A stretch of 64,000 bases of DNA from a virus (IMGVR_UViG_3300027733_000047), one strand, 5' to 3'. Numbered from the stretch's first letter, positions 6,908 through 35,090 are shown. Notes: generated by a model from the sequence alone, not told the origin. Program-made: numbers and translations.

Positions 6908-6946
6908 AAAGTTATCCACATAGGCAAAAAATATGTTAATAACTTT
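6908..6946. promoter_or_regulatory. hairpin AAAGTTAT-CCACA...-ATAACTTT containing a perfect DnaA box (TTATCCACA 6912-6920)
   Basis: 8-bp stem; precedes the plus-strand promoter of 7022..7330. Confidence 0.45.
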
Positions 6947-7021
6947 TCTAAAATAAATTTGGTAGGTTAAAAAAATAGTCCTATTTTTACATCAGTTCTT
7001 TCACATTTAAACCAATCTATT

Positions 7022-7330
7022 ATGACACAATTTGAAACGGCTATTGCCCAAGCCGAAATTGGCGAATTGCAAACTCCAAGTGTTAGTTATGGTAAAACTG
7101 CCATAGATTACTTTTGGTATCAAGTTTCAGTACATCACTTTAACCTTAAAATTATGGCAAGTGGTATGAAATGTCGGGGTATTAAATTTACCGATATTAA
7201 AAAATACTACGGCTTGAAAGGTAATTGCGCTAAAAAATGTCTGGCACAATTTGAAAATGTCGTTACTCGTTACCGATTAAAAATGATTAACGACCATCTC
7301 AACACAATGGAAACTGAATACTCGTTTTAA
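7022..7330 (+). CDS. hypothetical protein (lone plus-strand gene with own terminator)
   Basis: 102-aa ORF; TTTGG-N19-TAtttTTa upstream (6957-6990); strong intrinsic terminator 7345-7371. Confidence 0.6.
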   Translation: MTQFETAIAQAEIGELQTPSVSYGKTAIDYFWYQVSVHHFNLKIMASGMKCRGIKFTDIKKYYGLKGNCAKKCLAQFENVVTRYRLKMINDHLNTMETEYSF

Positions 7331-7344
7331 ACTCCAATCCAACA

Positions 7345-7371
7345 AAGCACCCTTCGGGGTGTTTTTTTTTG
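7345..7371 (+). terminator. rho-independent terminator of 7022..7330
   Basis: gcacccttcggggtgttttttttt: CACCC-TTCG-GGGTG followed by T9. Confidence 0.75.
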
Positions 7372-7375
7372 CCCC

Positions 7376-7395
7376 ATGTACACAAAAGTGTGCAT
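7376..7395. promoter_or_regulatory. 20-bp palindrome ATGTACACAAAAGTGTGCAT (operator-like, copy 1 of 9)
   Basis: Family consensus ATGTACACAA|TTGTGTACAT; lies between the terminator and the unit-B promoter. Confidence 0.5.
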
Positions 7396-7426
7396 TTAAA
7401 ATAATTTAAAAATAATTCAAAATAAA

Positions 7427-7527
7427 TTTGGTAGTATCAAATTAATGTACTACATTTGTATTGTCAATGTGAATGACAGACGATTAAAACTCGGGAGGTA
7501 TACTCCAAGCTACGTCATATTTTTTTA
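7427..7527 (+). ncRNA. mini-unit B (candidate sRNA)
   Basis: TTTGG(7427)-N19-TACATTTG(7451-7458), then tattgtcaatgtgaatgacagacgattaaaactcgggaggtatactccaagctacgtcataTTTTTTT. Confidence 0.45.
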
Positions 7528-7769
7528 GCGCTCCAAAAATCTTTTCATTCTTTCATATTCATAATTTTCATAATATAATATTTTTTTAATGAATTTAAAT
7601 AATGCTTTCATAGTATATGGATTTAATTATATATATTCAAATAATATACCAAACCAAAATTATTTTTCATATCCTATTTGTCAGCTCAAAACTGACAATG
7701 CAGATATAAAACATAACTCATTTTAAGCCGATTTAACGGCATATATTTATCAGATAAGGTAATCATAAG

Positions 7770-7802
7770 GGGCATAAAAAAAGGGGCTAAATTAGCCCCT
7801 TA
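7770..7802 (-). terminator. intrinsic terminator of 7821..8687
   Basis: Perfect palindrome aaggggctaaattagcccctt followed (on minus strand) by T7. Confidence 0.65.
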
Positions 7803-7820
7803 TTCATTCGTATAGCAATT

Positions 7821-8687
7821 TTAATTTGCCGTTGCCATATCGTATATGGTATCAAATATTTTGCCGTCTAGTGTTTTTTGCACATCAAACGATTTCGCAA
7901 ATTTGGTATGCAATATCTCGTTGAAGGCATTGTAACCTAACCACATATTAGGCGAAGTATTAAGGTATCTAGATTCAGCCAATATCGTATCTGCAACTAT
8001 TTCAGCATTTAAGGACGGCTCGGGATTTTTGTCCGATTTTTCATACTTAAATATAGCAGTTTCCTTGCATACGTCCTTTACGAATTTTTGCACATCAGAA
8101 ACGATTGCACCACTCAAAAACTCTGCCTTCGGTTTCAACGTGTAATACTCGTTATTCAAAAAATTGCTAACAAGGGTTTCAATTTCGGGCAATACAAACT
8201 CAACGATACTACCTTTATGCTTTACGTTAAAAGACATTTTGGTTTCAGCAACGTGCAAACCATTAGTACAAACTTGGCGAAAATATCCAAAACTGCCCGA
8301 CGTTTTACAACTGCCGTCATACGAATTAACGAAACGTAACATTGGCTTGATAATATCTTTGCCATTAGCCACAACGATATTATATCTATCATCGTTTAAG
8401 ATATAATCAACTGCGAAACTACGATTATCACGATTAATACTACGTGTGTCGTATTGCACATCAGCATTAATCAAATTTTCTTCCACAACGGCAAAAAACT
8501 GCTCGTTGGGTAAATGTCCGTAATTGTCCGAAAATACGCCTACCAACGTGCCGTTGGAATAGATTGCTTTTTCTAATCCCTTACGTGTAGGAGTGCCTAA
8601 AATTTCGGCTAAATTACGCACTTCGCTATCAACGAATACGTTGTCATTCTGCATTGTTTGCCCCTTAAAATTGATACGTGTAGTCAT
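7821..8687 (-). CDS. DUF932-like phage/plasmid protein
   Basis: Motif VNSYDGSCKTSGSFGYFRQVCTNGL resembles DUF932 signature (NSHDGSSA...FR.VCSNG); paralog of 32805..33701. Confidence 0.5.
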   Translation of the reverse strand: MTTRINFKGQTMQNDNVFVDSEVRNLAEILGTPTRKGLEKAIYSNGTLVGVFSDNYGHLPNEQFFAVVEENLINADVQYDTRSINRDNRSFAVDYILNDDRYNIVVANGKDIIKPMLRFVNSYDGSCKTSGSFGYFRQVCTNGLHVAETKMSFNVKHKGSIVEFVLPEIETLVSNFLNNEYYTLKPKAEFLSGAIVSDVQKFVKDVCKETAIFKYEKSDKNPEPSLNAEIVADTILAESRYLNTSPNMWLGYNAFNEILHTKFAKSFDVQKTLDGKIFDTIYDMATAN

Positions 8688-8740
8688 AACTGGGTTGCAT
8701 TTTAGCCACTCGCATTGTGGTTAGGTTGAATTGTGAGATA

Positions 8741-8780
8741 CAAATATCGCATTAGTTTTTCAAACCACCAAATTTATTTT
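8741..8780 (-). promoter_or_regulatory. Bacteroidota sigma-A-type promoter (TTTGG-N19-TAnnTTTG on minus strand)
   Basis: Plus strand reads caaatatcgc...ccaaatttatttt; drives 7821..8687. Confidence 0.55.
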
Positions 8781-8823
8781 GAATTATTTTTAAAATAGTT
8801 ATACACATATTATTTTTTATAAT

Positions 8824-8836
8824 GTGAATAACTTTG
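8824..8836. promoter_or_regulatory. half-site TGTGAATAACTTT (reverse complement of the TTATTCACA DnaA-box variant)
   Basis: Same extended motif AAGTTATNCACA as the other copies. Confidence 0.3.
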
Positions 8837-8842
8837 CACCCT

Positions 8843-8948
8843 AAAAAAAATAGCGTGTAGGTTGGAGTATACTTCCCGCCATTGTTAGTGCCGTATGTCA
8901 TTCAAATTGACAATACAAATATAGGATAATAAATTGAAACTACCAAAT
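8843..8948 (-). ncRNA. mini-unit D (candidate sRNA)
   Basis: Minus strand TTTGG-N19-TATATTTG, then tattgtcaatttgaatgacatacggcactaacaatggcgggaagtatactccaacctacacgctaTTTTTTTT; near-identical 5' segment to unit B. Confidence 0.45.
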
Positions 8949-9004
8949 TTATTTTAAAAAAAAATGCCCTACATTTGTAAGGCATTTAATTCGTGTGCTG
9001 ATTA

Positions 9005-9162
9005 ACACTGATAAGTTATCGGTATTATCTCAAACGCTTCAATAAAACCAGTTTCTGCTTGTAACACTTCAACAAGTGCAAGAGCATCAACTCTGTGTTC
9101 AAATGCTTTGTGCATAATACCCGCACCATTTTCAAATACGAGCCAAATTGTTTTTTCCATAA
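9005..9162 (-). CDS. small hypothetical protein (52 aa)
   Basis: My translation MEKTIWLVFENGAG...; promoter 9170-9230. Confidence 0.35.
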
Positions 9163-9307
9163 TAGATTGTTTTAATTGTGAGATACAAATATAGGATTAA
9201 TAATTCAAACTACCAAATATTTTTTGAAGTATTTTTAAAATATTTTTTTGGTGGTCTGGAATTAATGTTGTATGTTTGCTTTGTTTAAATGAATAGGTTA
9301 AAAGATA

Positions 9308-9345
9308 ATCCCTGATGTGTCTACATCGGGGATACTTTTTATTTT
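9308..9345 (+). terminator. plus-strand hairpin plus T-run
   Basis: atccctgatgt-gtctac-acatcggggat (11-bp stem, one G-U) then tttttatttt. Confidence 0.5.
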
Positions 9346-9354
9346 GTATAAACT

Positions 9355-9381
9355 AAAAAACCCCACACTTTTGGTGTAGGG
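9355..9381 (-). terminator. intrinsic terminator of 9406..9669
   Basis: Minus strand reads CCCTACAC-caaaa-GTGTGGGG then TTTTTT. Confidence 0.6.
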
Positions 9382-9405
9382 AATTTATTCACAATTAAAC
9401 TAACT

Positions 9406-9669
9406 TTAACTTCGTAGATATGCAATATCTTTGTTATACTTTAATGTCTTGGCTTGGCTTGTGGTCAGTCCAACAAACTCTTGTGGTCTAAAACTAATTT
9501 CATCGGGATAGAATTCAAATAAAAATTCTTCAACCCCATTTTCAAGCGTAACATAAACCTTTGGCATATCATCAAAGAAACTCTTTGGCATTGCCGTAAT
9601 TCTTGCTGATACGATTTTTAATTCTTCTGCTAACATAATTTTATTTTTTGATTGTGAATGAATAAGCAA
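9406..9669 (-). CDS. hypothetical protein
   Basis: ORF; promoter motif 9661-9710; terminator 9355-9381. Confidence 0.6.
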   Translation of the reverse strand: MLIHSQSKNKIMLAEELKIVSARITAMPKSFFDDMPKVYVTLENGVEEFLFEFYPDEISFRPQEFVGLTTSQAKTLKYNKDIAYLRS

Positions 9670-9722
9670 ATTTAAGATTAATTTTCCACACTACCAAATA
9701 TTTTGCAAAGTTTTTTCAACCC

Positions 9723-9742
9723 ATGTACACAAAAGTGTATAT
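9723..9742. promoter_or_regulatory. palindrome ATGTACACAAAAGTGTATAT (copy 2)
   Basis: About 20 bp upstream of the -33 of the 9406..9669 promoter. Confidence 0.5.
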
Positions 9743-9826
9743 CGTGGAATTGATTGAGAGTCGCCCCATGCTCTCATGTATTGCCGTTCTTTGTTGCGTG
9801 GACTTTCGGCACATTAAACAATTCCA

Positions 9827-10168
9827 TTATCTTTTATTCAACCATTCATCAAAGGTGCGATAACCTCCGAATGCTCTCCATTGGTTATACATATCATTCC
9901 TATCTTTGCAAACACGCTTTGCCCACTTGTAAACCAACTCGGTTTCTTTGAATGTGGTAAAGTTATCTCGGCAATAGTTTTCAAGAAACCCTACTGCTTG
10001 GCACCAACGAATATATGATTTTTCGGTAATGCGTCTGTTTATCCAATCATCACTTGTTCTGCCACAATCATTGAATTGTTTAATCGTATCAAACCCAGCA
10101 GACATTTTATCAATATCTACTTTGTTATATAAACTCTCAACAACCCTTGCTATGTAATGTGCTGTCAT
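9827..10168 (-). CDS. hypothetical protein
   Basis: 113-aa ORF on dominant strand. Confidence 0.55.
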   Translation of the reverse strand: MTAHYIARVVESLYNKVDIDKMSAGFDTIKQFNDCGRTSDDWINRRITEKSYIRWCQAVGFLENYCRDNFTTFKETELVYKWAKRVCKDRNDMYNQWRAFGGYRTFDEWLNKR

Positions 10169-10317
10169 ATTATTTTATATTATCTATTAACCAAGCGATA
10201 AATTTGCCTAATGAAGTTACAAACCAAATAAACCCCAATGTAACAAAAAAGCCAATCCAAAATTCTTGAGTGTATAACATACTGCAAATATAAGATAATT
10301 TTTTGAATGTACCAAAT

Positions 10318-10539
10318 TTATTTTATGTTTGTTAATGGGTAAGCGTTGATAAACCTTTCAGTAACTAGCTCAAAATTTTCTTTATCTCTAGGGTAGTATT
10401 CATTAGCAACGGATTCTAAAGCTGCTTCTACGTGTAGTTTGGCAAACTCTTTCATTGCTTGTGGAACACTTTGTTCAAAAGTGTGTCCTTCTTGCCTATG
10501 ATAATTTTTTATAAATTCTTCTGCTGTTTGTATTTTCAT
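10318..10539 (-). CDS. hypothetical protein
   Basis: ORF; consensus promoter 10541-10583 abuts ATG. Confidence 0.6.
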   Translation of the reverse strand: MKIQTAEEFIKNYHRQEGHTFEQSVPQAMKEFAKLHVEAALESVANEYYPRDKENFELVTERFINAYPLTNIK

Positions 10540-10540
10540 A

Positions 10541-10583
10541 CTGCAAATATAAGATTAATAATTGAATGTACCAAATTTATTTT
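10541..10583 (-). promoter_or_regulatory. consensus promoter abutting ATG (leaderless-type)
   Basis: ctgcaaatataagattaataattgaatgtaccaaatttatttt; -7 box ends 4 nt before ATG of 10318..10539. Confidence 0.6.
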
Positions 10584-10798
10584 TCAAATTCTTTTAGTGT
10601 TCTTAATGTTCGTTGTAATTCTTCCATATCACAACAAACTGCAACCCTTCTGCTAAATGGCAACCAAAAAAACCTATGATGTTTTACGACTACATAACCA
10701 ATCTCTAACTTACCTTCGTAGTTATATAATTGTTTATAATATGCGTAGTCATATTCGGTAAATGCTGAATTAAGTATTCTTTTTAATAATTTTTTCAT
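10577..10798 (-). CDS. hypothetical protein
   Basis: ORF; consensus promoter 10800-10842 abuts ATG. Confidence 0.6.
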   Translation of the reverse strand: MKKLLKRILNSAFTEYDYAYYKQLYNYEGKLEIGYVVVKHHRFFWLPFSRRVAVCCDMEELQRTLRTLKEFEK

Positions 10799-10799
10799 A

Positions 10800-10842
10800 C
10801 TGCAAATATAAGATTAATAATTGAATGTACCAAATTTATTTT
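10800..10842 (-). promoter_or_regulatory. consensus promoter abutting ATG
   Basis: Identical motif to 10541-10583; drives 10577..10798. Confidence 0.6.
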
Positions 10843-11153
10843 GCACTTTTTACATTATTAAATTCAACAACTCCAATTGCTCGTCTAACCAATGTCAATG
10901 CTTTTTGGTCGTAGCCACCAATATGCCAATCTGTTATTCTATTTACATCACGATTATTTTTGTAGTCATATATTGTAGCCACAACTGATTGTCCGTGAAT
11001 GCCACCTAATATTGTCCAATGTGCCAATGATTTGTCGTAATTGGTTTCAGGTTTGCCCAATGTCATAACCAATTCTTGATAGGTTATATCCAAATAACCT
11101 TGTAAGTGTGTGCCGTTTATTCTTGTGCTAGGGTGATTAATTTTGAATGCCAT
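10836..11153 (-). CDS. hypothetical protein
   Basis: ORF; consensus promoter 11170-11203. Confidence 0.6.
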   Translation of the reverse strand: MAFKINHPSTRINGTHLQGYLDITYQELVMTLGKPETNYDKSLAHWTILGGIHGQSVVATIYDYKNNRDVNRITDWHIGGYDQKALTLVRRAIGVVEFNNVKSAK

Positions 11154-11169
11154 TGCTTAATTGTTTAGG

Positions 11170-11203
11170 ACACAAATATAAGGATAATAATTCAATGTAC
11201 CAA
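11170..11203 (-). promoter_or_regulatory. consensus promoter
   Basis: cacaaatataaggataataattcaatgtaccaaatttattttt; drives 10836..11153. Confidence 0.55.
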
Positions 11204-11383
11204 ATTTATTTTTAAAATCTTTGTATCCTTGCCAAATGTTCTAATGCGTCTTTATAGGTATCTGCCCAAATACGATAGCCATCTAGTACATATAACTTTT
11301 TGCCATCTTCTCTTACTTGGATTGGTTGCGGTAAACTTGATTCGTTTTGCATTGTTTTTAATTTATAGATTATTTAATTTATT

Positions 11384-11507
11384 ACGACTTAAACTTTTTC
11401 GGATACCAAACTCCGCAACTGCCCTTGCTACAATTACCACTAACGTAATACTTTGAACAAGATGAAAATGCAACTGCGATTAGAATTAAGATGAATAACT
11501 TTTTCAT
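11384..11507 (-). CDS. small secreted Cys-rich peptide (41 aa)
   Basis: My translation MKKLFILILIAVAFSSCSKYYVSGNCSKGSCGVWYPKKFKS; promoter 11534-11573 abuts ATG. Confidence 0.4.
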
Positions 11508-11566
11508 AATAGATTGTTTTTAATTGTGAGATACAAATATAGGACTATTTTTTGTATCTACCAAAT

Positions 11567-11800
11567 TTATTTTAAAGAAAAAGAAATTTCTTTTTTTAAT
11601 GGTTTATCTACATCATAATCTAACTTACTTAATACTTCAACTAATTTATCATTAGTTTTGTGTAACTGGTTTCTAATTTCTTCGATAGTGTAAACTTTAT
11701 CTAGGTCGTTTGTTTGGCTTTCGTCTTTTAGTAAGAATATATCTACATCAGCCATAGTAGATGCAATTAATGTTCTAATTGTAAGTAATTCGTTTTGCAT
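11567..11800 (-). CDS. hypothetical protein
   Basis: ORF; promoter 11821-11860 abuts ATG. Confidence 0.6.
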   Translation of the reverse strand: MQNELLTIRTLIASTMADVDIFLLKDESQTNDLDKVYTIEEIRNQLHKTNDKLVEVLSKLDYDVDKPLKKEISFSLK

Positions 11801-11820
11801 AATTGATTTGTTTTAGAATG

Positions 11821-11860
11821 TAAATATAGGACTATTTTTTGTATCTACCAAATTTATTTT
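11821..11860 (-). promoter_or_regulatory. consensus promoter abutting ATG
   Basis: taaatataggactattttttgtatctaccaaatttatttt; drives 11567..11800. Confidence 0.55.
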
Positions 11861-12290
11861 AGATATTTACCAAAATAATTTCCGCTGATTGATACGATAT
11901 TTCGGGACTAACAAAAACTCCTTCCTTTTGGAATTTCCTTAATCTTGTATTTTCTTGTTTGGTAACTAAATTCCATATACCATACTTTGTAAGATAGATT
12001 TCTTTTAATTCATCTACACTATTAGGTGTTGTGTCCAGCAATATTTTACCAACTATTTTTCTTGGGTATTCGTGTTCTTTAACTCGTTTGTTCTTGGGTA
12101 ACTCCAATGCCTTCTCGCTTATCTTTCCGCTGAATGTTAATCTGTTTGTGGGTAGATAATATATTGCAGCACCAACGATTGTGGATAGAAATTCTTTTTG
12201 GTATTCAGTTGATGTGTCGTAACTTTGTTTTAGATTAACTAAAAGATTAAATACCGATTCAAACTTTTGTTCTGTTTTATTCATACGCAA
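11859..12290 (-). CDS. hypothetical protein
   Basis: ORF; promoter 12291-12330. Confidence 0.6.
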   Translation of the reverse strand: MRMNKTEQKFESVFNLLVNLKQSYDTSTEYQKEFLSTIVGAAIYYLPTNRLTFSGKISEKALELPKNKRVKEHEYPRKIVGKILLDTTPNSVDELKEIYLTKYGIWNLVTKQENTRLRKFQKEGVFVSPEISYQSAEIILVNI

Positions 12291-12316
12291 ATATAAGATT
12301 AATTTTTCAAAGTACC

Positions 12317-12350
12317 AAAAAAAAAGGAAAGTTTTTTTAGGACTTTCCCT
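12317..12350 (-). terminator. intrinsic terminator of 12367..12912
   Basis: Minus strand reads GGAAAGT-cctaaaaaa-ACTTTCC then T9. Confidence 0.65.
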
Positions 12351-12366
12351 TTTAGGTGTTTCACAA

Positions 12367-12912
12367 TTAACCTACTATCTTTTCGTTTATACCAAATTCA
12401 TCTAAAATTGATTCAACTCCGTAATATCCAAAACAACTATCTTCAATTTCGCCGTTTTCGTTTATCAATGTATATCCGTACACTTCGCCTCGCATATAAA
12501 GGTCGTATGTTTCTAATTCAGCCAATAGGACTTTTGTTACCTTCTCAATTTCTTTTTTGGTAACTCGCTTAACTCCGTATTCGTTTTTTACTTTATCTTT
12601 GCTAATAAACACAAACCCTATCTGCCCACTATCCCACTTGCAACTGAATGGTGTTGTTGAAATTGTTATGCCCGAATGGTCGTAAAGATATAAGGGTAAT
12701 ATGATTGCTGGTTTTTCATTTTTAATGATTGCCTTCTCCATTTCTGCCCAACCCGAATAATCTTGATGTTTGTAGGTGTGTTTGTCGCCTAACGAATATC
12801 GTCCGTGAAAACATATCATTGTAGATAGGTTATCATCGTGTCTTGGATTGTTAGGGTACTCGTCTTGTGTTACTTCTAATGTTTTGCCATTGTTTAATTT
12901 GTACGTTTCCAT
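12367..12912 (-). CDS. hypothetical protein
   Basis: Start moved to METYKLNNG (ATG 12910-12912) so it does not overlap promoter 12939-12980; terminator 12317-12350 downstream. Confidence 0.6.
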   Translation of the reverse strand: METYKLNNGKTLEVTQDEYPNNPRHDDNLSTMICFHGRYSLGDKHTYKHQDYSGWAEMEKAIIKNEKPAIILPLYLYDHSGITISTTPFSCKWDSGQIGFVFISKDKVKNEYGVKRVTKKEIEKVTKVLLAELETYDLYMRGEVYGYTLINENGEIEDSCFGYYGVESILDEFGINEKIVG

Positions 12913-13057
12913 TTTATTTGTTTTTAATTGTGAGATACAAATATAATACAATAAATTCAAACTACCAAATTTATTTTGAATTATTTTAAAGTTTTTTTAA
13001 AAAAGCTCCCGATATAGAAATATCGGGATTGATTATTGAATGAAAAAAAGAACTATT

Positions 13058-15527: not shown

Positions 15528-15627
15528 ATTTGGTAGTGTCAATTATTATTACGATATTTGTATTGTCAATGTATGACAGACGATTCGCTCGGTAGGTATA
15601 CTCCAACCTACGCCATATTTTTTTTAG
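15528..15627 (+). ncRNA. mini-unit C (candidate sRNA)
   Basis: TTTGG(15528)-N19-gATATTTG, then tattgtcaatgtatgacagacgattcgctcggtaggtatactccaacctacgccataTTTTTTTT. Confidence 0.45.
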
Positions 15628-15916: not shown

Positions 15917-15990
15917 TGTTTAAAGTTTAATTGTGATTAATAGAATACAAATATCGCAATAATAATTCAAACTACCAAATTTATTTAATA

Positions 15991-16024
15991 AAAGTTATCC
16001 ACATTTTTAGTGTGGATAACCTTT
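15991..16024. promoter_or_regulatory. inverted pair of perfect DnaA boxes (TTATCCACA 15995-16003 / TGTGGATAA 16011-16019) forming a 13-bp-stem hairpin
   Basis: aaagttatccacatttttagtgtggataaccttt; between the 16034..16612 stop and the next promoter. Confidence 0.5.
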
Positions 16025-16033: not shown

Positions 16034-16612
16034 TTATTTTTCAAATGATAATTCTTCGCCATTTGTTCGCATTTTCATTCCATTCAATTTGAATTTGAAT
16101 TGGCGATACTTTGTTGATTTCATCATTTGGCGAATTTCATCTTTTGCCTTTGTTTTGGCACTTCTTTTATCTTCGCCATAATCAACTGCTTCAACAACAT
16201 TCTTTTTAACTTTGCTACCAAAAACATATAACTCCAATGTATCAGCGTGTAACTTCAACGCTTCGTTAATGTGGATATACGCTTCTTTTTGTCCTTCGCT
16301 TCTTGCTTTGCTTGGATTGATTAAACTCTCCAATAACTCGGTTTTTGCTACAAGAATATCAACCATAGAACTATTCCATTCCATTGTGGTAACATCTAAA
16401 TTAGAAAGGAATTTAATGTCCTTCTGCTTTGCAGTTTGGTAATTAACACCAATGTTGATTAGATAATCGGCTAATTCGCCTTTGTCATTTACATAACCTT
16501 TAACCGAACAAAAGGTTACATTCGTTAATGATTTGTTCAACGCTGATTTGATTGTTTCAGCGATTGTTTCTGCTTGGTTACTTAAACCAATGATTGTTGC
16601 TTCGTTTTGCAT
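16034..16612 (-). CDS. hypothetical protein
   Basis: 192-aa ORF; promoter 16625-16685. Confidence 0.6.
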   Translation of the reverse strand: MQNEATIIGLSNQAETIAETIKSALNKSLTNVTFCSVKGYVNDKGELADYLINIGVNYQTAKQKDIKFLSNLDVTTMEWNSSMVDILVAKTELLESLINPSKARSEGQKEAYIHINEALKLHADTLELYVFGSKVKKNVVEAVDYGEDKRSAKTKAKDEIRQMMKSTKYRQFKFKLNGMKMRTNGEELSFEK

Positions 16613-18609: not shown

Positions 18610-19395
18610 CTACTTTATCTTAAATTCAGCACGATATATATCAATCAAATGTGCTAAAAAATCTGTTTCATTTTCGCTAAATTTAGCATTGGCTTTTGTC
18701 AAATGTTTTGCAGATTTGAGAATGGCTTTGCTCATTCTTTTGTAATCTTTTGACATTCTTAATACTTTAAATAAACTCCTTCTCGCAAATGATTTGTTTG
18801 GTATATCATTCTTAACCAATGTAACGGCATCAAGCATTTCGTAACTATCATCAACATCAAAAAACTTTAAATCACCACTTTTAAACGCTTTACCTTCTTG
18901 GTTTTTTGATGCACCACCCATAAAGATATGTAACAAATCAGTTGTTGTCAAACCCTTATCTTTAATTAATTTATCAAATATTTGATATTCTGGAATGTGA
19001 TAAAATGTACGGATATAGTTATTGTTACTCCACGCTTTTGCAGTATTGTTTAATGATGTAACATATCTCAATACATTCATCAGCGTATCTTCGGTTAAAT
19101 CAACGATAAGGATATTTAAAGGTAAATCTAAACGTGATGCGGCTATGATACTATGTTGCCCATCAGCAATATATTCTTCATTAACCTTACCAAATACCAT
19201 AGTACGAATGATAATTACCTTTGTACCCGCAGTACCATACTTTGAGAAACTCTCCATCAATACCTTAACTTGTGCTTCATCAACACCACGATTGTGATTG
19301 TTAGGTAATTTTGAATACTTTAAATACTCCTTTGGTTTCATCTCTTGGTAGATTTTTAATAATCTCGCAATTAATGTTGACTCTGTTTTTTTCAT
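18610..19395 (-). CDS. ParB/Srx-fold (DGQHR-like) nuclease-domain protein
   Basis: N-terminal LPNNHNRGVDEAQVKVLMESFSKYG...IADGQHSIIAA resembles ParB N-domain / DGQHR motif; promoter 19420-19470; terminator 18561-18594. Confidence 0.45.
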   Translation of the reverse strand: MKKTESTLIARLLKIYQEMKPKEYLKYSKLPNNHNRGVDEAQVKVLMESFSKYGTAGTKVIIIRTMVFGKVNEEYIADGQHSIIAASRLDLPLNILIVDLTEDTLMNVLRYVTSLNNTAKAWSNNNYIRTFYHIPEYQIFDKLIKDKGLTTTDLLHIFMGGASKNQEGKAFKSGDLKFFDVDDSYEMLDAVTLVKNDIPNKSFARRSLFKVLRMSKDYKRMSKAILKSAKHLTKANAKFSENETDFLAHLIDIYRAEFKIK

Positions 19396-20378: not shown

Positions 20379-20452
20379 TTTGTTTAGATTTAGATTGTGA
20401 AATAAATAATAGAGTGCAAATGTAATCTTATATTTGCACTCTACCAAATTTT

Positions 20453-20701
20453 TTAGTTATTATTATTAAATAAGTTACCCACAACGCTATCCACATTTTC
20501 CATATCTTGAACAACTTTCATTGCTTTCTTTACATCACCTTGTGTAACGTGTCTTAACATTATTAATTGTGAATAAAAGATAATTGCTTTCATTCTGTCA
20601 TCATCTTGACATTCCTTCCATTCAGCGATTGCTTCTTCAAGGTCTTTAACTAATTTTGCTTCGGTTGAAGCAGTTGCCATCATTACTAGCATTGATTTCA
20701 T
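20453..20701 (-). CDS. hypothetical protein
   Basis: ORF; promoter 20725-20775. Confidence 0.55.
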   Translation of the reverse strand: MKSMLVMMATASTEAKLVKDLEEAIAEWKECQDDDRMKAIIFYSQLIMLRHVTQGDVKKAMKVVQDMENVDSVVGNLFNNNN

Positions 20702-20788
20702 AATAATTTGTTTTAGATTGTTAATTGATAGTGCAAATATCGTATTAATAATTCAATCTACCAAATTTATTTTGAAGTATTTTTGGAT

Positions 20789-20815
20789 AAGTTATCCACA
20801 CTATGTTTATAACTT
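20789..20815. promoter_or_regulatory. hairpin AAGTTAT-CCACA..-ATAACTT with a perfect DnaA box (20792-20800)
   Basis: ggataagttatccacactatgtttataactt. Confidence 0.45.
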
Positions 20816-21220
20816 AATTTGTTCAGTATGTGAATTTGTATCAGTTTGCATACCAATAACATTTGACAGTAACTGGTAATTAGTGAAACCCTCTTTGTTA
20901 GGTAAATCCAATTTAATGTTATGCTTCTCAATTATATGCTCAATCATTGTATTCATCATATCATAATCTAAAATGAATTCAGCCAATACCTTTGAAGAAA
21001 ATCTACCCGCTTCCCTGACTAATTGTTTAACGCCAGTGAAGGCTGTATATGAATAACCATTGTTATACTTTGTCAATGGCTGTATTGAAAGATAGTAACC
21101 CCTTCTCTCAACACTACCCGTAAAGTAATTCATTCCACCTTTGTTGTAATATATTTCAACGTCCACGTGTGTAAAACTGCTTTCTAATGTCGGAAACGAT
21201 AATAATAATCTTTTGTGCAT
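20807..21220 (-). CDS. hypothetical protein
   Basis: ORF; promoter 21228-21270. Confidence 0.6.
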   Translation of the reverse strand: MHKRLLLSFPTLESSFTHVDVEIYYNKGGMNYFTGSVERRGYYLSIQPLTKYNNGYSYTAFTGVKQLVREAGRFSSKVLAEFILDYDMMNTMIEHIIEKHNIKLDLPNKEGFTNYQLLSNVIGMQTDTNSHTEQIKL

Positions 21221-28850: not shown

Positions 28851-28864
28851 TACCCCTCGCGCAC

Positions 28865-28886
28865 ATGGGTACACAAATGTGTACAT
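28865..28886. promoter_or_regulatory. palindrome ATGGGTACACAAATGTGTACAT (copy 6)
   Basis: About 20 bp upstream of the -33 of promoter 28810-28850; preceded by cctcgcgcac. Confidence 0.5.
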
Positions 28887-28964
28887 AAAACACAGATGCC
28901 GTTATCTCTAACGGCACCCATGAATCATCAATCTAAAACTAAAAACAAAAAACAAAAAGCAATA

Positions 28965-29531: not shown

Positions 29532-29695
29532 AATATTATGTTTTAGTGTTTGTGAAAATAATCGTAAATGTCAACAACGCAGTTAAATATTAGCATAGCC
29601 ATAATGATAGTACCTAAACCCAATAAGCACCATACCACAAATACTTCGCTGTCGTGTCTTTGTCTTTCTCTATTGTTCATAACGCAAATGTAAGA

Positions 29696-30253
29696 TTAAA
29701 AAATGAATTTACCAAAACTATCTTTTCTTAAACATAATTGAGATAGATTTGTATTTAATATTGTTTCACCTTGGCTATCCAATTCTTTAATTTTTTTTGT
29801 CACATACTCTCTACCATCAACCCTATTTAAGATTTGTTCAAGCGTATATCCCTTCCAACTCAACATCTTATATCCGTTTTCGTTGAAATTTTTGCTATAA
29901 CATATACCCTTAAGCATATCTTTAGCCAACTTCTTTTTATGTTTCTCAATCTTTTTCTTATTGGATATAGCATATACCACTTCATTAATCCAATGTTCAA
30001 GATTACTTTTAATCTCAATAGTTCTTTCACCATAGGTTACAAACTTTGAAGGTAAGGTCTTGCAATACTCCTCTGCTTGTGCAATAATAGGTCGTAACTC
30101 AATAGAATACGCATTATAAAAGGTACAACCACCTCTGCCGTCATTATTAGCATAGGCAACCTTCTTACCATTAACATACAAATCTGCTTTGAACATCAGC
30201 GTTTCTTCGCTGAACGCTTCATTAATCTTTACGTTTTTTAATTCTAATTTCAT
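29696..30253 (-). CDS. hypothetical protein
   Basis: 185-aa ORF; promoter 30270-30315. Confidence 0.6.
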   Translation of the reverse strand: MKLELKNVKINEAFSEETLMFKADLYVNGKKVAYANNDGRGGCTFYNAYSIELRPIIAQAEEYCKTLPSKFVTYGERTIEIKSNLEHWINEVVYAISNKKKIEKHKKKLAKDMLKGICYSKNFNENGYKMLSWKGYTLEQILNRVDGREYVTKKIKELDSQGETILNTNLSQLCLRKDSFGKFIF

Positions 30254-30312
30254 ATTATTTAAGTTTTAGAATACAAATATAAGAAAAAATTTGTTACAAA
30301 CCAAATTTATTT

Positions 30313-30660
30313 TTAATTATCCCAATCATTATAATCACCGTCCTCCAGCGCCTCTAATATCCCTATTAAGATATCCAAAGGTAAATCATCGTAGTTATGT
30401 TCCGATTGGAACTCCAACCAGTAATCATTATCTCCAGTATCAATATGTACCTTACCCGATTCACCGTCAACCCTCTTAACACAATGATTCGTTTGGTCGT
30501 CAACTACGATATAGATTAACGGTGTATGTAATTCAATCACCCTAACATCATTACTCAAAAACATACTCTTGATGTCATTCATGATATCAATCCTTAAATC
30601 TAATATCGCCCTTTTGTATTCTGTACTTTTCATATATAACTTTTTAATAATAATAAGCAA
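30313..30660 (-). CDS. hypothetical protein
   Basis: 115-aa ORF. Confidence 0.5.
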   Translation of the reverse strand: MLIIIKKLYMKSTEYKRAILDLRIDIMNDIKSMFLSNDVRVIELHTPLIYIVVDDQTNHCVKRVDGESGKVHIDTGDNDYWLEFQSEHNYDDLPLDILIGILEALEDGDYNDWDN

Positions 30661-31000
30661 TTGCTACCGTATAAAGATGTAAATCAACTTCATCAACTGA
30701 AACCTCATAATGTTCATAATAGTTAACATTACCAAATACCTTCTTCGCCAGTTTCTCAACAGCATCAGTAATCTTTTTTAGATTATCTAATTTACGATTC
30801 TTTAACATATACTCTGCTACCAACCTATCGGCTTCATTAAGATAACCCTTCTTTAAGGTATCTTTACGAAAGAAATCCACATTCTCAACAAAATCCAAAT
30901 CGTGTGAGAATATTTGAAGCAAACCTTCTTTGATATGACCATCACACATCGTATGCAATTGAAAATGAATTAACCCAAGTGAATTGTTGTAATTGCCCAT
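30644..31000 (-). CDS. hypothetical protein
   Basis: ORF; promoter 31010-31055. Confidence 0.55.
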   Translation of the reverse strand: MGNYNNSLGLIHFQLHTMCDGHIKEGLLQIFSHDLDFVENVDFFRKDTLKKGYLNEADRLVAEYMLKNRKLDNLKKITDAVEKLAKKVFGNVNYYEHYEVSVDEVDLHLYTVAIAYYY

Positions 31001-31025
31001 GATTTATTTTTTTACAAATATAAGA

Positions 31026-31388
31026 TTAAATTTCCGTTTCAACAAATTTATTTTCATAAACTTGTCGTAGCCCGCCGTAACCAATTGGAATCCCGCCGTT
31101 GCCCCACTGAACATCACCCTCGTTGTAATCATCCATGTTACCCTTAACCAATGAAATAAACATATCGTATGCCTCCTTCATTACCTGACTGTCATTACCG
31201 TACATAACATAAAATCCAAATAGATTTTGTTTTGGCTGTCCAACAAATACAATCTTATAACTATCACCGTACTTATGCACGCTTGCTCTGTTCTTGAACC
31301 CTGAATAACTTATTGGTTTGTTTGTACTCAAATTAATCAACCCTAACAATTTTAAATTGTCAACCAACTGCTCATTACTTAACTTCAT
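31026..31388 (-). CDS. hypothetical protein
   Basis: 120-aa ORF. Confidence 0.55.
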   Translation of the reverse strand: MKLSNEQLVDNLKLLGLINLSTNKPISYSGFKNRASVHKYGDSYKIVFVGQPKQNLFGFYVMYGNDSQVMKEAYDMFISLVKGNMDDYNEGDVQWGNGGIPIGYGGLRQVYENKFVETEI

Positions 31389-31417
31389 ATATCTAATTTT
31401 AGTTTACAAATATAGGA

Positions 31418-32239
31418 CTATTGATTCAAATTGTCCGCATTTAATTTTAACTTCATCATTTGTTTAATAGCACCTGCCCTCTCAAATTGCTCATCTTTGA
31501 TAGCCAACTCTAATAACTTCTCCAAAACTGGAAGGGCGTACTCCTCAATTAAATTACCTTCCTCATGGGCAATCTCTACCAACCAAGTATTGAAATCATC
31601 TAACTCGCTGTCATCCTCAACATCATCAATCAATCTTTCCTCAATCCAATATGACATATCACCCAATATCTCCATTGCTAATTTAATCGAATCTTTGCTG
31701 TAATCGGGTTGATAGATATCTACTATCTCACCACCCTGTAAGGTATAGGTCCCAACATTGCTACCAAAATCTTCATCAGCATATCTTACTTCAATAGTAA
31801 TATCCTCAAACATCTCACTCAATTTAACCAACGCCCTGATAGGTGTACTCCACGCTGTTTCAAATATAACAAACCCCTCATCACCCTCGCCTCTATGACT
31901 ATAACAATCCCACTTCGTACCCCAACTATGTATGTGCCAATCATACCAATTATCAGCACCATACTTACGCTTTAAGTTATTTTGCTCATCTTTGGTAATA
32001 GGTCTATAATCTTTCTCCCACTCGTTTAACTCACCTTTGGCTACCTTATCTTTCCACTCCTGTAACTCTGCTTCGGTTACAATCTTTGCTGGACTACTCG
32101 TTCCTATCAACTCATCAGGCATAGGATAAAATGATTGAAAACTAAATGGGCTTTTATCACCCTTACATTTCTCTCTTAACTCTTTAATTCTTTCTGTACT
32201 ACCTAAAAAGGTTACTTCGTTTGTTACGTGGTTTGGCAT
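31418..32239 (-). CDS. hypothetical acidic protein
   Basis: 273-aa ORF; promoter 32265-32310. Confidence 0.6.
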   Translation of the reverse strand: MPNHVTNEVTFLGSTERIKELREKCKGDKSPFSFQSFYPMPDELIGTSSPAKIVTEAELQEWKDKVAKGELNEWEKDYRPITKDEQNNLKRKYGADNWYDWHIHSWGTKWDCYSHRGEGDEGFVIFETAWSTPIRALVKLSEMFEDITIEVRYADEDFGSNVGTYTLQGGEIVDIYQPDYSKDSIKLAMEILGDMSYWIEERLIDDVEDDSELDDFNTWLVEIAHEEGNLIEEYALPVLEKLLELAIKDEQFERAGAIKQMMKLKLNADNLNQ

Positions 32240-32300
32240 TGTTTTATGTTTTAAATTTATGAATACGCAAATATAATACTAATTTTGGTAACTACCAAAT

Positions 32301-32564
32301 TTATTTTTCTGTCTTATCATATCTTATATAAGATATCCAATACTGCTCCAAATCTATCATTTGATTATTACACAAATCCATGAAATCACTTAGGGTAATA
32401 ATATCAATATCATTAGGTATCGCTGTTTCTAATTGATGTATGTCATACAGGTTATTCTCAACCTTCTCAGCAAACCCTCTCCTGTCATACTCATCAATCG
32501 GTATCAATAATATTCTCGTTTCAATATTCATAGCCTTAATGTTTAGATAGCAAATATAAGACAA
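32301..32564 (-). CDS. hypothetical protein
   Basis: ORF; promoter 32550-32595. Confidence 0.55.
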   Translation of the reverse strand: MSYICYLNIKAMNIETRILLIPIDEYDRRGFAEKVENNLYDIHQLETAIPNDIDIITLSDFMDLCNNQMIDLEQYWISYIRYDKTEK

Positions 32565-32605
32565 CTTTTGTTATCAACCAAATTTATTTTAATAAAAAAA
32601 AGATT

Positions 32606-32690
32606 TTTTTATTCCAAAATATAATCCTATATTTGCATAGCAATCATGCAAGACGACTACAAATCGGGAGGTATACTCCAACCTACCCCT
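32606..32690 (+). ncRNA. mini-unit H (candidate sRNA, no T-run)
   Basis: TATATTTG, then catagcaatcatgcaagacgactacaaatcgggaggtatactccaacctacc; shares gacgactacaaatcggga(a/g)gtatactccaac with unit E. Confidence 0.3.
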
Positions 32691-32691
32691 A

Positions 32692-32730
32692 TTTGCTAAA
32701 TTCTTTAGTACTTGCTAAAATCTTTAGTAT
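32692..32730. promoter_or_regulatory. two tandem TTGCTAAA-N3-TTTAGTA palindromes
   Basis: tttgctaaattctttagta / cttgctaaaatctttagtat directly after mini-unit H. Confidence 0.4.
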
Positions 32731-32745
32731 TGGATAAAACAAAAA

Positions 32746-32773
32746 AAGTTATTCACATTGCTGTGAATAACTC
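32746..32773. promoter_or_regulatory. inverted pair TTATTCACA / TGTGAATAA (DnaA-box variant) hairpin
   Basis: aagttattcacattgctgtgaataactc, 12-bp stem. Confidence 0.45.
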
Positions 32774-32804
32774 TTTCGGATTTTAAAGCGGGTTTTTCTA
32801 TATG

Positions 32805-33701
32805 TTAAGCAAGGCTCAACTCGTTTAAAGCAAATTCAAAACTTGCTTGGTTTTTCTTATACGATGTACCAACCAACATGTTTTCCCAATCACCATTTAC
32901 ACGCTTGGGTGCTTTTCTCTCATGTGTTGTCCATGATGTAACACCACTGTGTAACCCCCACATGTTCATTCCCTTCTGCTCCATTTCCTTATTGATGTGT
33001 GTGTATAAATCATCCATGATGTTAATCGACTTTTGTGTTAACTTGTCGAATTCAGCAATGCTGGTAATTACTCTATCATAACCCAATACACTCTTAACCA
33101 TTTTATCGGCTAATCCTTTTGATACTTCTGTAGATACAAATCTACGATATCTCTCAACTTGGCGAAGGCTCTCACCTAATGCTGTTTCAATCAGGGAAGG
33201 AATCGATTTGATTTTCTCATTCAATGTCGCTGTATGTCTAAACTTCGCGTTACCTTCTCTATAGAAACGGAAAAACTGATTCATACAACTCATAGTCAAA
33301 TCACCAATACCAACACTTAACCCTGTACTACCATCATTGCTGTCTATGATTGTAACATAACGTTTGATGATGTCATCACCTACTTTGCTGTCACCTTCGA
33401 TAGCCAACTGCATAAACACCCTACGACCACCATTGATACTTCCAGCCTTGGATACAGTTAACTCACTACCAAACTTCTCCATACCGCGTAATACCATCTC
33501 AACCACATCTGCATTCTGCGATACAGTATAACCTTCTTTTACTGTATTGATACACTCATTCGTTGAACTGTTAAATAAACCGTAATACGGTGTTATCATT
33601 TGCTCACCTTGGTTATTGTGCGCAATCAAGGGCGCTTTCTCAATAGTGAAATCTAAACCATGTACAGATAAAATGTCTTGTACTTTCTCATTGTAATTCA
33701 T
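32805..33701 (-). CDS. DUF932-like phage/plasmid protein
   Basis: 298 aa; IIDSNDGSTGLSVGIGDLTMSCMNQF resembles DUF932 core; paralog of 7821..8687; promoter 33730-33770. Confidence 0.45.
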   Translation of the reverse strand: MNYNEKVQDILSVHGLDFTIEKAPLIAHNNQGEQMITPYYGLFNSSTNECINTVKEGYTVSQNADVVEMVLRGMEKFGSELTVSKAGSINGGRRVFMQLAIEGDSKVGDDIIKRYVTIIDSNDGSTGLSVGIGDLTMSCMNQFFRFYREGNAKFRHTATLNEKIKSIPSLIETALGESLRQVERYRRFVSTEVSKGLADKMVKSVLGYDRVITSIAEFDKLTQKSINIMDDLYTHINKEMEQKGMNMWGLHSGVTSWTTHERKAPKRVNGDWENMLVGTSYKKNQASFEFALNELSLA

Positions 33702-33787
33702 AACTTTAATTTTTTTAAGTGATTAATAGAATGCAAATATACTATTAAATTTAATGCCAACCAAATATAATCTTATTTATTTTAAAA

Positions 33788-33973
33788 TTATTTTTCAGTA
33801 TAGATAAACTTAACCTTGCTACCTTGTTTGGTATTTGGCTCCAATTTATCTATATTTGTCCAGCCCCACTTCCATTCAACCTTGGTGGCACCAACCCAAC
33901 CAATGGTACGAAGGAATCTACCGTATTGGTTTACTACATATAATCTGTCACCTACTTTGATATCTTTTACCAT
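33788..33973 (-). CDS. hypothetical protein
   Basis: 61-aa ORF overlapping stop of next gene. Confidence 0.45.
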   Translation of the reverse strand: MVKDIKVGDRLYVVNQYGRFLRTIGWVGATKVEWKWGWTNIDKLEPNTKQGSKVKFIYTEK

Positions 33974-34188
33974 TCTACTTTAAATTTATCTAATGTGTCT
34001 AAATATACAATCTCATAATTCAAGCAAATATACTCTCTATTATCCATTTCACTATCCAACCATACTTTGATTATACCTACAGGCCTATCATCAACATACA
34101 GGGTAACCTCGGGCTCACCTTCATCTTGATATGATAATTGTTTGTAATCTTTGAACCTGACTTCCGTTTCTTCCTTGATACGTTTCAT
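33967..34188 (-). CDS. hypothetical protein
   Basis: ORF; promoter variant 34192-34235; palindrome 34238-34260 upstream. Confidence 0.5.
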   Translation of the reverse strand: MKRIKEETEVRFKDYKQLSYQDEGEPEVTLYVDDRPVGIIKVWLDSEMDNREYICLNYEIVYLDTLDKFKVEW

Positions 34189-34237
34189 ACAGCAAATGTA
34201 ATTTTAATTATTCAAATAAACAAATCTATTTTTATAA

Positions 34238-34260
34238 GGGGTACACAATTGTGTACACCC
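34238..34260. promoter_or_regulatory. palindrome GGTACACAATTGTGTACACC (copy 7)
   Basis: Abuts the promoter of 33967..34188. Confidence 0.5.
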
Positions 34261-34262
34261 AC

Positions 34263-34988
34263 CTATATAGCAATGGCAAACCCTGTGGTAAATGCTACCT
34301 TATTATCAGCACCTTTGCCTGTTTGGTTTTTATACTTCAAACCAACTATAACACCCTGTTCGTCCAGAAAACGTAAATCAGTTTCATCACCGTTAACTAC
34401 TCTATAACCGTTATACGTTTCAGGTAACTTATTAAATACCATGGCTACATTATAACCTTTCTTTAATACCGCCATGGCATGTTTGTCGTTATCTTCACTC
34501 CTGCTAAAGGTTAAATGATAATTGCTAGGCATGGACCCGTCAAACCTTTTAGGATTCTTGGTATAATCATAAAATTGTATATCAGGATATAATTCGAAAA
34601 TATTCTTACCTTCACGTATCTTTAATTTTTCCCAACGTATATCACTAGTACCGTTTAACCTGAATACTGGTATTGCTTTACCTTCATGTTTTTTGATAGC
34701 TTTGCTCACCTCTAAATCTAATTGAGCTAAAAACTCTTTGCGATTGGCTAAATACCATTCAGTTTTATTACGACGACCTTCCTGAACTGTATCGTACATC
34801 CCACCAAACCCTGACTTAAATAAACAGGCCGATGAACACCCTGAACTAGCATGTGGACATAAATTAACACCCTGACTATTATCAGTATAAGGTGACATGT
34901 ACATAATATAGGTTATATAACCTAATTTAGCACCTTTGATTGTTTTGTGGTTGTTTGTGGTTAACAACGTACTTTTGTAGTAAGACAT
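34263..34988 (-). CDS. hypothetical Cys-cluster protein
   Basis: 241 aa; CPHASSGCSSAC cluster; promoter 35000-35055. Confidence 0.6.
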   Translation of the reverse strand: MSYYKSTLLTTNNHKTIKGAKLGYITYIMYMSPYTDNSQGVNLCPHASSGCSSACLFKSGFGGMYDTVQEGRRNKTEWYLANRKEFLAQLDLEVSKAIKKHEGKAIPVFRLNGTSDIRWEKLKIREGKNIFELYPDIQFYDYTKNPKRFDGSMPSNYHLTFSRSEDNDKHAMAVLKKGYNVAMVFNKLPETYNGYRVVNGDETDLRFLDEQGVIVGLKYKNQTGKGADNKVAFTTGFAIAI

Positions 34989-35061
34989 AAGCTTTAATGT
35001 TTTAGATTAAGAAAGTACAAATGTATGGCTATTTTTGATACGTTCCAAATTTATTTTGCCT

Positions 35062-35090
35062 GGCACATAACAAAGTTATCCACATCATGT
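35062..35090. promoter_or_regulatory. hairpin AAAGTTAT-CCACAtcatgtgc-ATAACTTT with a perfect DnaA box (35066-35074)
   Basis: At the edge of the ORF-free region, abutting the promoter of 34263..34988. Confidence 0.45.

Follow-up and report, generated by a model that had tools for sequence, protein, structure and literature searches.

Why should a phage genome carry perfect matches to the box sequence of DnaA, the replication initiator of its host, and carry them repeatedly, at a distance from one another? The question is raised by the viral sequence IMGVR_UViG_3300027733_000047, of which a stretch of 64,000 nt was analysed here (the window, by which we mean the whole of this stretch), and in which copies of the DnaA-box 9-mer TTATCCACA lie in inverted pairs within potential hairpins. 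A sequence-only reading of the stretch had considered simple hairpins acting as terminators or insulators and had leaned towards titration or recruitment of host DnaA, with an origin, or interference with host replication, as the outcome. Our analysis points to a different role, in which host DnaA, or a mimic of it, would act from helically phased upstream sites on a subset of the host-type early promoters of the phage. Judging from the sequence, we give this reading a probability of roughly 0.55.

The boxes are more frequent than chance predicts. Five copies of TTATCCACA are present in the window, against 0.87 expected (none of 100 shuffles reaches five) or 1.08 expected (at most four in 200 shuffles), which bears out the enrichment that the sequence-only reading had supposed. 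They start at 6912, 15995, 20792 and 35076 on the + strand and lie at 16011-16019 on the - strand, so that four of the positions given earlier stand and the fifth, 35066, has to be moved to 35076; the hairpin of that copy adjoins an open reading frame (ORF)-free region, as had been said, and spans 35073-35099 instead of 35062-35090. The one-mismatch variant TTATTCACA occurs at 8823-8831 (-), 32749 (+) and 32762 (-), together with four unrelated single copies (the earlier position 32762 was right, while 8824 and 32751 needed correction). The relaxed consensus TTATNCACA is found 20 times against 6.1 expected, the excess consisting of ten hairpin arms preceded by G and the remaining ten being close to background, and the extended 12-mer AAGTTATNNACA is found 11 times against 0.48 expected. 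One 12-mer family accounts for the whole of the box enrichment. Altogether, the window holds six inverted pairs and one direct double box (20474-20495); the six pairs correspond to the sites listed earlier, and the direct double box had been overlooked. Ten of the 12 arms fit TTATNCACA, the other two being TTATTAACA and TTATAAACA, and the window sites match the DnaA-box consensus, TTATNCACA in its relaxed and TTATCCACA in its strict form.

The same arrangement is widespread among bacteria. The full pair AAGTTATCCACA-N3-15-TGTGGATAACTT was found at no fewer than 120 genome loci in many phyla, including Bacillota, Actinomycetota, Chloroflexota, Deinococcota, Pseudomonadota and Bacteroidota (Runella, Pedobacter, Prevotella, Saprospiraceae, Cytophagales), and in 37 of these at least 120 loci, each 8 kb long, dnaA itself is present, mostly with the pair up to ~900 bp upstream or shortly downstream of the gene. 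The spacers of the genome pairs are bimodal (3-7 and 13-15 nt), and all the spacers of the window (3, 3, 4, 7, 13 and 15 nt) fall within these two classes. Beside canonical pairs, the bacterial variants at box positions 5-6 (CC far above CA, TC, TA and GC) largely overlap the variants of the window and of its relatives. Among viruses, at least 120 contigs, with 27-68 % G+C, carry inverted pairs of the form GTTATNCACA-N3-15-TGTGNATAAC; AAG/CTT are the commonest flanks of these GTTATNCACA pairs even in contigs with 45 % G+C or more, the two bases before GTTAT are mostly A, and GTTAT is preceded by (A/G)A in contigs of every GC content. The idea that the AAG flank spoke against DnaA and for a phage-specific protein was dropped, AAG being the normal DnaA-box flank in comparative scans. 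Tandem direct boxes 2-3 bp apart, as at 20474-20495, are present in the related contigs L010, L015 (aagTTATCCACAaagTTATCAACA) and L054 and in other phages. It is known that E. coli DnaA needs a "double DnaA box" in vivo, for instance at polA and at nrdA (gTTATCCACAaagTTATGCACT) (PMC11317965), and that the oriC of Prevotella was located by DnaA boxes of the E. coli type (PMC4755523). Closely spaced pairs, to which DnaA binds as a cooperative dimer, are what the window offers, one of them direct (3-bp spacer, the layout described in PMC11317965) and six inverted, with spacers in both natural classes. By every available sequence criterion, including natural context and variant spectrum, the window elements are DnaA sites, to which we infer that DnaA binds; flanks, dnaA-adjoining pairs across phyla, variants and spacers all agree with natural sites, and the identification as DnaA boxes made from the sequence alone can be upheld.

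What surrounds these sites is a dense array of promoters. The window has 32 % G+C, its ORFs (the longest of 456 aa) are nearly all on the - strand, and about 60 near-identical 45-nt promoter copies (AAAATAAATTTGGTAG, ~20 nt, TATATTTG) precede small genes, mostly one small ORF each. The motif has the Bacteroidota housekeeping architecture, -33 TTTG / -7 TAnnTTTG, reportedly described by Bayley et al. 2000 and Chen et al. 2007. The copies, 57 of 60 on the - strand, are dense at 4.4-33.8 kb (4400-33800), and beyond 36 kb, where long operons prevail, only four are found (38349, 41320, 43128 and 59680). A DUF932 protein of the window is 54 % identical to proteins of Flavobacterium psychrophilum phages, and an exact-protein look-up of the GP88-family protein led to contigs from freshwater lake metagenomes that are 99.8-100 % identical to the window, too close for conservation analysis; one source in such metagenomes is JGI 3300027734 contig Ga0209087_1000028. 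Relatives recognised by their GP88 gene are for the most part large phages, the biggest reaching 370 kb. A megablast of the window at 30-40 kb against GenBank phages gave no match, and a scan of viral contigs with a 22-mer of the promoter returned only unrelated contigs having the same promoter. The box sites fall in the promoter-dense early region of a freshwater Bacteroidota phage.

The sites and the promoters beside them are the following, each promoter being listed after the boxes from which its distance is counted.

6909-6920 and 6934-6945: inverted pair A, spacer 13 nt, AAGTTATCCACA on the left and the reverse complement of AAGTTATTAACA on the right; divergent promoters on either side
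6875-6906 (-): promoter-like site, -33 TTTG at 6906-6903, -7 TACCTTTG at 6882-6875; 4 bp past box 6920-6911
6958-6989 (+): promoter, -33 at 6958-6961, -7 at 6982-6989; 14 bp past box 6934-6943; drives ORF 7022-7330
8796-8807 and 8823-8834: inverted pair B, spacer 15 nt, TAGTTATACACA and the reverse complement of AAGTTATTCACA; directly past the T-run of a small-RNA-like unit
8741-8772 (-): promoter, 25 bp past box 8807-8798; drives the DUF932 gene 8687-7821
15992-16003 and 16011-16022: inverted pair C, spacer 7 nt, two perfect TTATCCACA; begins 11 nt past the stop codon of ORF 16034-16612
15948-15979 (-): promoter, 14 bp past box 16003-15994; drives the 70-aa ORF 15916-15704
20474-20495 (-): direct double box (boxes 20475-20483 and 20487-20495), TGTGGATAG-cgt-TGTGGGTAA, 3-bp spacer; not capable of forming a hairpin
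20417-20448 (-): promoter, 25 bp past box 20483-20474
20789-20800 and 20804-20815: inverted pair E, spacer 3 nt, AAGTTATCCACA and the reverse complement of AAGTTATAAACA; overlaps the stop codon of ORF 20807-21220
20734-20765 (-): promoter, 25 bp past box 20800-20791; drives ORF 20701-20453
32746-32757 and 32762-32773: inverted pair F, spacer 4 nt, TTATTCACA twice; followed by a run of 7 T on the - strand
35073-35084 and 35088-35099: inverted pair G, spacer 3 nt, AAGTTATCCACA and the reverse complement of AAGTTATGCACA; at the edge of the ORF-free region
35018-35049 (-): promoter, 25 bp past box 35084-35075; drives the GP88-family gene 34988-34263
35102-35134 (+): promoter-like site, -33 TTTG at 35102-35105, -7 TAAATTTG at 35127-35134; 4 bp past box 35088-35097; aimed into the ORF-free region

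Five of the six inverted pairs sit between the end of the upstream gene, or of a small-RNA-like unit, and a promoter, so that the placement between stop codon and promoter proposed earlier broadly holds for these five. Pair F (32746-32773) is without a consensus promoter at a phased distance, and a + strand small-RNA copy ends ~50 nt away from it. The promoter-like site 6875-6906 scored below the position weight matrix threshold used for the promoter listing; transcription from it (-) would run antisense to the small-RNA copy whose end lies near 6852.

The decisive feature is the geometry. At eight promoters, the nearer box of the site is invariably oriented as TGTNNATAAC when read in the direction of the promoter, and the distance d between its end and the initial T of the -33 TTTG takes one of three values, 4, 14 or 25 bp. 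The distance is 25 bp for the promoters with the -33 element at 35049, 20765, 20448 and 8772, 14 bp for those at 15979 and 6958 (+ strand) and 4 bp for those at 6906 (- strand) and 35102 (+ strand), values that are separated by one helical turn. The second box lies 12-25 bp farther upstream of the proximal one, inverted in six cases and direct in one. Because the sequences between box and promoter differ among the sites, the modules are not recent duplicates. The direct double box sits within the last codons of ORF 20453-20701, and here the placement overrides coding, the boxes being put into the end of a coding region in order to keep d at 25 bp. The relatives anchored by GP88 use the same distances, with d = 14 in L010, L015, L021 and L030, d = 25 in L021 (twice) and L083, and d = 4 in L013. 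The sequence-only reading had rightly seen that the boxes lie near promoters; the phasing at 4, 14 and 25 bp, which points to transcription regulation, had gone unnoticed.

The IMG/VR collection was scanned with the pattern TGTGGATAAC-N0-30-TTTG-N19-21-TAnnTTTG. In the box-forward orientation at least 119 stretches were found; the matches listed comprise 103 distinct sites in 83 sequence clusters, from contigs with 26-51 % G+C, and among these listed matches the distances peak at 4-6, 14-15 and 24-26 bp. At a period of 10.5 bp the 83 clusters have an amplitude of 0.54, whereas the highest value reached by 20,000 uniform nulls is 0.37. A 10-mer control matched in composition gave only 26 stretches in the whole collection, with a flat distance distribution. 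With the box in the opposite orientation there were 73 stretches, and their peaks at 3 and 13 bp are due for the most part to a few sequence families. The promoter-linked boxes of other phages, again among the matches listed, are mostly single (80 of 103), with tandem direct (16) and inverted (7) arrangements in the minority. As at promoters regulated by DnaA, the boxes lie in the upstream or core promoter region and are placed stereospecifically, on one face of the helix. Helical phasing and a preferred orientation are typical of a factor that sits on DNA and cooperates with RNA polymerase, whereas neither typifies terminators, titration sinks or origins.

The geometry bears directly on the hairpins from which the question started. 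All six inverted pairs can indeed fold, as had been proposed (dG -7.7 to -18.9 kcal/mol), and all of them fold better than shuffled sequence (z from -2.3 to -6.9). Additionally, they occupy the slot held at other promoters by canonical GC-rich terminators: the terminator scan finds 29 canonical terminator-like sites at 4-24 kb, against 8 expected, many of them G+C-rich and in this very position before other promoters. One could then regard the elements as RNA or single-strand hairpins (terminators or insulators) that spread with the promoters in the manner of T4-like promoter-early stem-loop cassettes, their resemblance to DnaA sites being functionless. Only one of the six pairs passes the same scan, however, namely pair F (32777-32742), with its 7 T directly following. 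Mismatches break up four of the six stems at box positions 5-6, which are degenerate, and leave the box consensus intact; since they fall on these positions, selection would be on the box and not on pairing. Moreover, the double box 20474-20495, the single and tandem boxes of relatives and 96 of the 103 listed IMG/VR sites cannot fold at all, terminators do not as such keep set distances, one helical turn apart, to the -33 element, and identity with dnaA-adjoining sites across phyla would be an unlikely coincidence. We consider this explanation quite improbable, and simple terminators or insulators find no support as the chief role of the sites. The capacity to fold comes with the inversion of the boxes and is not what is selected; pair F, with its adjoining T-run, may also terminate transcription.

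Regulation by host DnaA could be pictured as follows. Host DnaA would bind each box pair as a dimer, which matches the preference of E. coli DnaA for closely spaced double boxes; placed on one face of the helix, it would contact or obstruct RNA polymerase. These early units would then be expressed according to how much DnaA the cell contains, or to its nucleotide state, and so according to how the host is replicating and growing. More tentatively, and with somewhat less than an even chance of being right, the reading can be extended to Bacteroidota phages from 30 kb to jumbo size, which would routinely build the host DnaA box into their early promoters (in constant helical phase, at about -45, -55 and -66), using DnaA as a general transcription co-factor or as a sensor of the host state.

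Several observations weigh against host DnaA as the regulator. The promoters with boxes are not weaker than the others (Mann-Whitney p = 0.41), and because of this there is no hint of dependence on an activator. The genes downstream of them are heterogeneous and mostly of unassigned function, and no common function appears in other phages either. The closest relative found, L009 (GP88 77 % identical), has no box at the orthologous place upstream of GP88, which implies rapid turnover of the sites. Two cultured flavobacterial phages, 6H and, over a 40-kb stretch, PTm1, are likewise devoid of canonical box-promoter modules. In the IMG/VR census, the figures for the forward orientation hold among the matches listed, and the T-rich flank of the box may account for part of the peak at d = 4-6. 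Finally, some relatives use only TTATTAACA or TTATCAACA, in which the conserved C6 of the classical consensus is broken, and at least one related phage, L085, encodes a stand-alone protein resembling DnaA domain IV, possibly the real ligand.

The last two points lead to another explanation, that the sites are bound by a phage-encoded protein with DnaA-like specificity (such as a stand-alone domain IV), which regulates the promoters or displaces host DnaA. The protein of L085 (IMGVR_UViG_3300011334_000309, positions 151-603, a contig with a GP88 homologue) is 150 aa long and matches domain IV of E. coli DnaA, the DNA-binding domain, with a tblastn E of 7e-10; it may compete with DnaA at the boxes, or mimic it. 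Fixed non-canonical boxes in some relatives would also be expected of a private factor that evolves together with its sites (every box of L021 is TTATTAACA). Such a gene is, however, absent from the 64-kb window, which is part of the genome, and rare among the more than 500 loci examined, and in motif, flanks and variant spectrum the sites agree with bacterial DnaA sites of all phyla, an agreement most simply explained by a universal host factor. A private factor of this kind is, in our view, unlikely.

With host DnaA retained as the preferred ligand, its function at the sites could still be replication instead of transcription. At least one site, above all 35073-35099 beside the ORF-free region, might be a DnaA-dependent, transcription-activated phage origin. 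This site combines a box pair, divergent promoters and an ORF-free stretch of 0.87 kb, which holds a cassette between two TGTACAC palindromes that is conserved in relatives. The slopes of both GC skew and AT skew change at 35-36 kb, and boxes of the form GTTATNNACA are enriched in the 1 kb upstream of GP88 homologues (15 in 65 bins, against ~0.04 per bin elsewhere). In Runella aurantiaca (NZ_QPIW01000040.1; L233, ~6650-7000), moreover, the same inverted box pair is found amid at least six iterons ctatcaccattactacgaaa, with the look of a plasmid-type origin.

An origin would be expected to show more than this. Each site has two boxes only, which form no array, and neither a DnaA-trio nor an unwinding element stands out (a (TAA)4 run is seen after one box alone, that at 20474); the highest density, four boxes in ~340 bp (20474-20815), is split over two promoter modules and is not an origin-like cluster. 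The cumulative GC skew falls monotonically and flattens at 35-50 kb, with neither minimum nor maximum, so that the inflection near the sites that the sequence-only reading had named as a check is missing and only the change of slope at 35-36 kb is left; the flattening coincides with the switch from the promoter-dense region to long operons. The same modules are scattered over 30 kb and precede ordinary early genes in other phages. No iterons were found in the window, and no rep or initiator homologue among the window proteins scanned, the window being part of the genome; GP88 is without an informative homologue, and neither GP88 nor the small proteins behind the box promoters have a PDB, Pfam or NCBIfam match that suggests DNA binding or initiation. 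An origin at these sites is unlikely on the evidence of box clustering and skew. In practice, an isolated DnaA box in a phage genome should not be called an origin by origin-finding software.

Titration fares worse still, and we regard it as highly improbable. It would have the boxes take up host DnaA as the phage genome multiplies, in the manner of datA, and so shut off host initiation. At least 12 good boxes in 30 kb would suit such a sink, and their copies would rise with phage replication. A sink needs neither orientation nor helical phasing relative to promoters, the window has no cluster of five or more boxes as in datA (they are dispersed as pairs over 28 kb), and many of the census phages have a single box. 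The origin and titration roles favoured by the sequence-only reading thus find no support, with no box cluster, no skew inflection and no initiator gene among the scanned window proteins, although titration could be a side effect of the boxes.

DnaA-box pairs and promoters were also seen in other settings. A family of viral contigs from IMG/VR with 37-41 % GC (L095, L109, L111, L114, L117, L166, L170, L182 and others) carries a DnaA-box pair with a 14-nt spacer, flanked by the palindrome gtgattaatctcac on one side and by a G+C-rich hairpin on the other; this pair may be a conserved origin or operator of another phage group. The window encodes a ParB-like protein (18610-19395, -; phrog_12305), and genes of the same family lie directly behind DnaA-box promoters in the unrelated IMG/VR contigs L346 and L388. 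Binding of this protein to the palindromic pairs, as parS- or KorB-like operators, was considered and rejected: the half-site is unlike parS, the spacing is variable and the motif is universal among bacteria.

Other elements share the promoter-dense region. Eight paralogous small-RNA-like units of ~60 nt each comprise a promoter copy of their own, a 5' hairpin that varies and a core that does not (CGG.A.GTATACTCCA); six of them end in a T-run. The core occurs eight times against 0.09 expected, the element is absent from Rfam, and it is also found just upstream of GP88 in L010, L013-L015, L017, L018, L021 and L083. For three of the copies, the distance from their end to a DnaA-box pair is only 12-57 nt. 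An 18-bp palindrome (TGTACAC-WWWW-GTGTACA, with a fixed spacer of 4 nt) is conserved in nearly every related large-phage contig, often directly after a canonical terminator, and typically paired, 270-440 nt apart, at 0.5-1.5 kb upstream of GP88; it may be the operator of a dimeric regulator or a specific RNA hairpin. The positions of the two elements are:

4807-4822 (-), 5693-5708 (+), 6318-6333 (-), 6820-6835 (+), 7494-7509 (+), 8861-8876 (-), 15592-15607 (+) and 32667-32682 (+): core of the small-RNA-like units
7377, 9724, 17180, 21336, 28868, 34240, 35549 and 35921: TGTACAC palindrome, present also in L009-L030, L080 and L083

Within the ORF-free region (35100-35970), the cassette between two palindromes (35549-35938) is homologous to sequences in L009, L014 and L015 (nhmmer E 2e-13 to 7e-5), with conserved blocks such as GTGGTAAAAAGTG and TTTTTCGGCT.GAAATTTT, and a G+C-rich stretch occupies 35150-35545. 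The - strand fold of 35100-35560 gave no structure signal (z = -0.34), and a consensus fold of the palindrome cassette from 10 phages contained the palindromes alone, with no covariation. Scans of the whole window for tRNA and tmRNA, and against Rfam at gathering thresholds, returned zero matches, and Rfam at permissive E-values gave nothing above chance level in 34900-36100. An HNH endonuclease gene (35970-36614, -) abuts the region. Farther right, a nicotinamide phosphoribosyltransferase gene is split into 58629-59408 (-) and 60477-61307 (-), the N-terminal part covering profile positions 12-272 and the C-terminal part 262-494, and the insert of ~1 kb between the halves carries a + strand ORF (59762-60499); the split may reflect an intron, the insertion of a homing element or a disrupted gene. 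A gene for a GIY-YIG-type homing endonuclease (62108-62896, -) lies near the right end of the window.

DnaA is known to control the transcription of a small regulon in bacteria and to assist at some origins of plasmids and phages. If host DnaA does act at the promoters described here, phages would read the replication-initiation status of the host directly at their early promoters, and the control of early genes in Bacteroidota phages, in which transcription is little understood, would become open to concrete tests.

How does the arrangement compare with known systems? The nearest are the bacterial double-box promoters (nrdAB, polA, purH, dnaA and mioC of E. coli; PMC11317965), which share the 9-mer, the 'aag' spacer or flank and the position of the boxes just upstream of or over the promoter; Stringer, Fitzgerald & Wade (2024) describe DnaA as a transcription factor that needs closely spaced box pairs for binding (PMC11317965). 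Unlike in those promoters, the setting here is viral and of the Bacteroidota -33/-7 type, the pairs of the window are mostly inverted and not direct, the distance is quantised at 4, 14 and 25 bp, and the layout recurs many times within one genome and across many phages.

Among phages, lambda offers a parallel in kind, as DnaA reportedly stimulates its pR promoter, according to Wegrzyn and co-workers. Host DnaA would modulate transcription from a phage promoter in both cases (a prediction in ours), whereas the lambda boxes lie downstream of one promoter, are tied to activation of the lambda origin and form no phased upstream module. DnaA boxes also occur in the plasmid and phage origins P1 oriR, F, pSC101 and RK2. 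Such origins, and the one in Runella (L233), resemble the window sites in having one or two boxes, often paired, that a mobile replicon has borrowed; there, however, iterons, an AT-rich unwinding element and a rep gene accompany the boxes, and no such companion was found at the window sites.

The datA and DARS loci of E. coli, which titrate and reactivate DnaA, respectively, are likewise non-origin sites built of DnaA boxes, but they are single loci with a defined cluster architecture and IHF or Fis sites, uncoupled from promoters. The promoter-early stem-loop (PeSL) cassettes of T4-type phages, reportedly described by Arbiol, Comeau & Krisch in 2010, are alike in their many small early genes, each with a near-identical promoter and a stem-loop upstream, in a plastic region of the genome. 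Their stem-loops are terminator-like and without a conserved protein-binding sequence, whereas what is conserved here is the DnaA box and how far it stands from the promoter, and the majority of the window promoters have no box. In the literature searched, an incomplete collection, we found no description of DnaA boxes at promoters of Bacteroidota phages or of such a class of phage promoters dependent on a host factor. As a putative operator, the DnaA box belongs to a known kind, and it is the viral arrangement, phased and repeated, that is new and apparently widespread.

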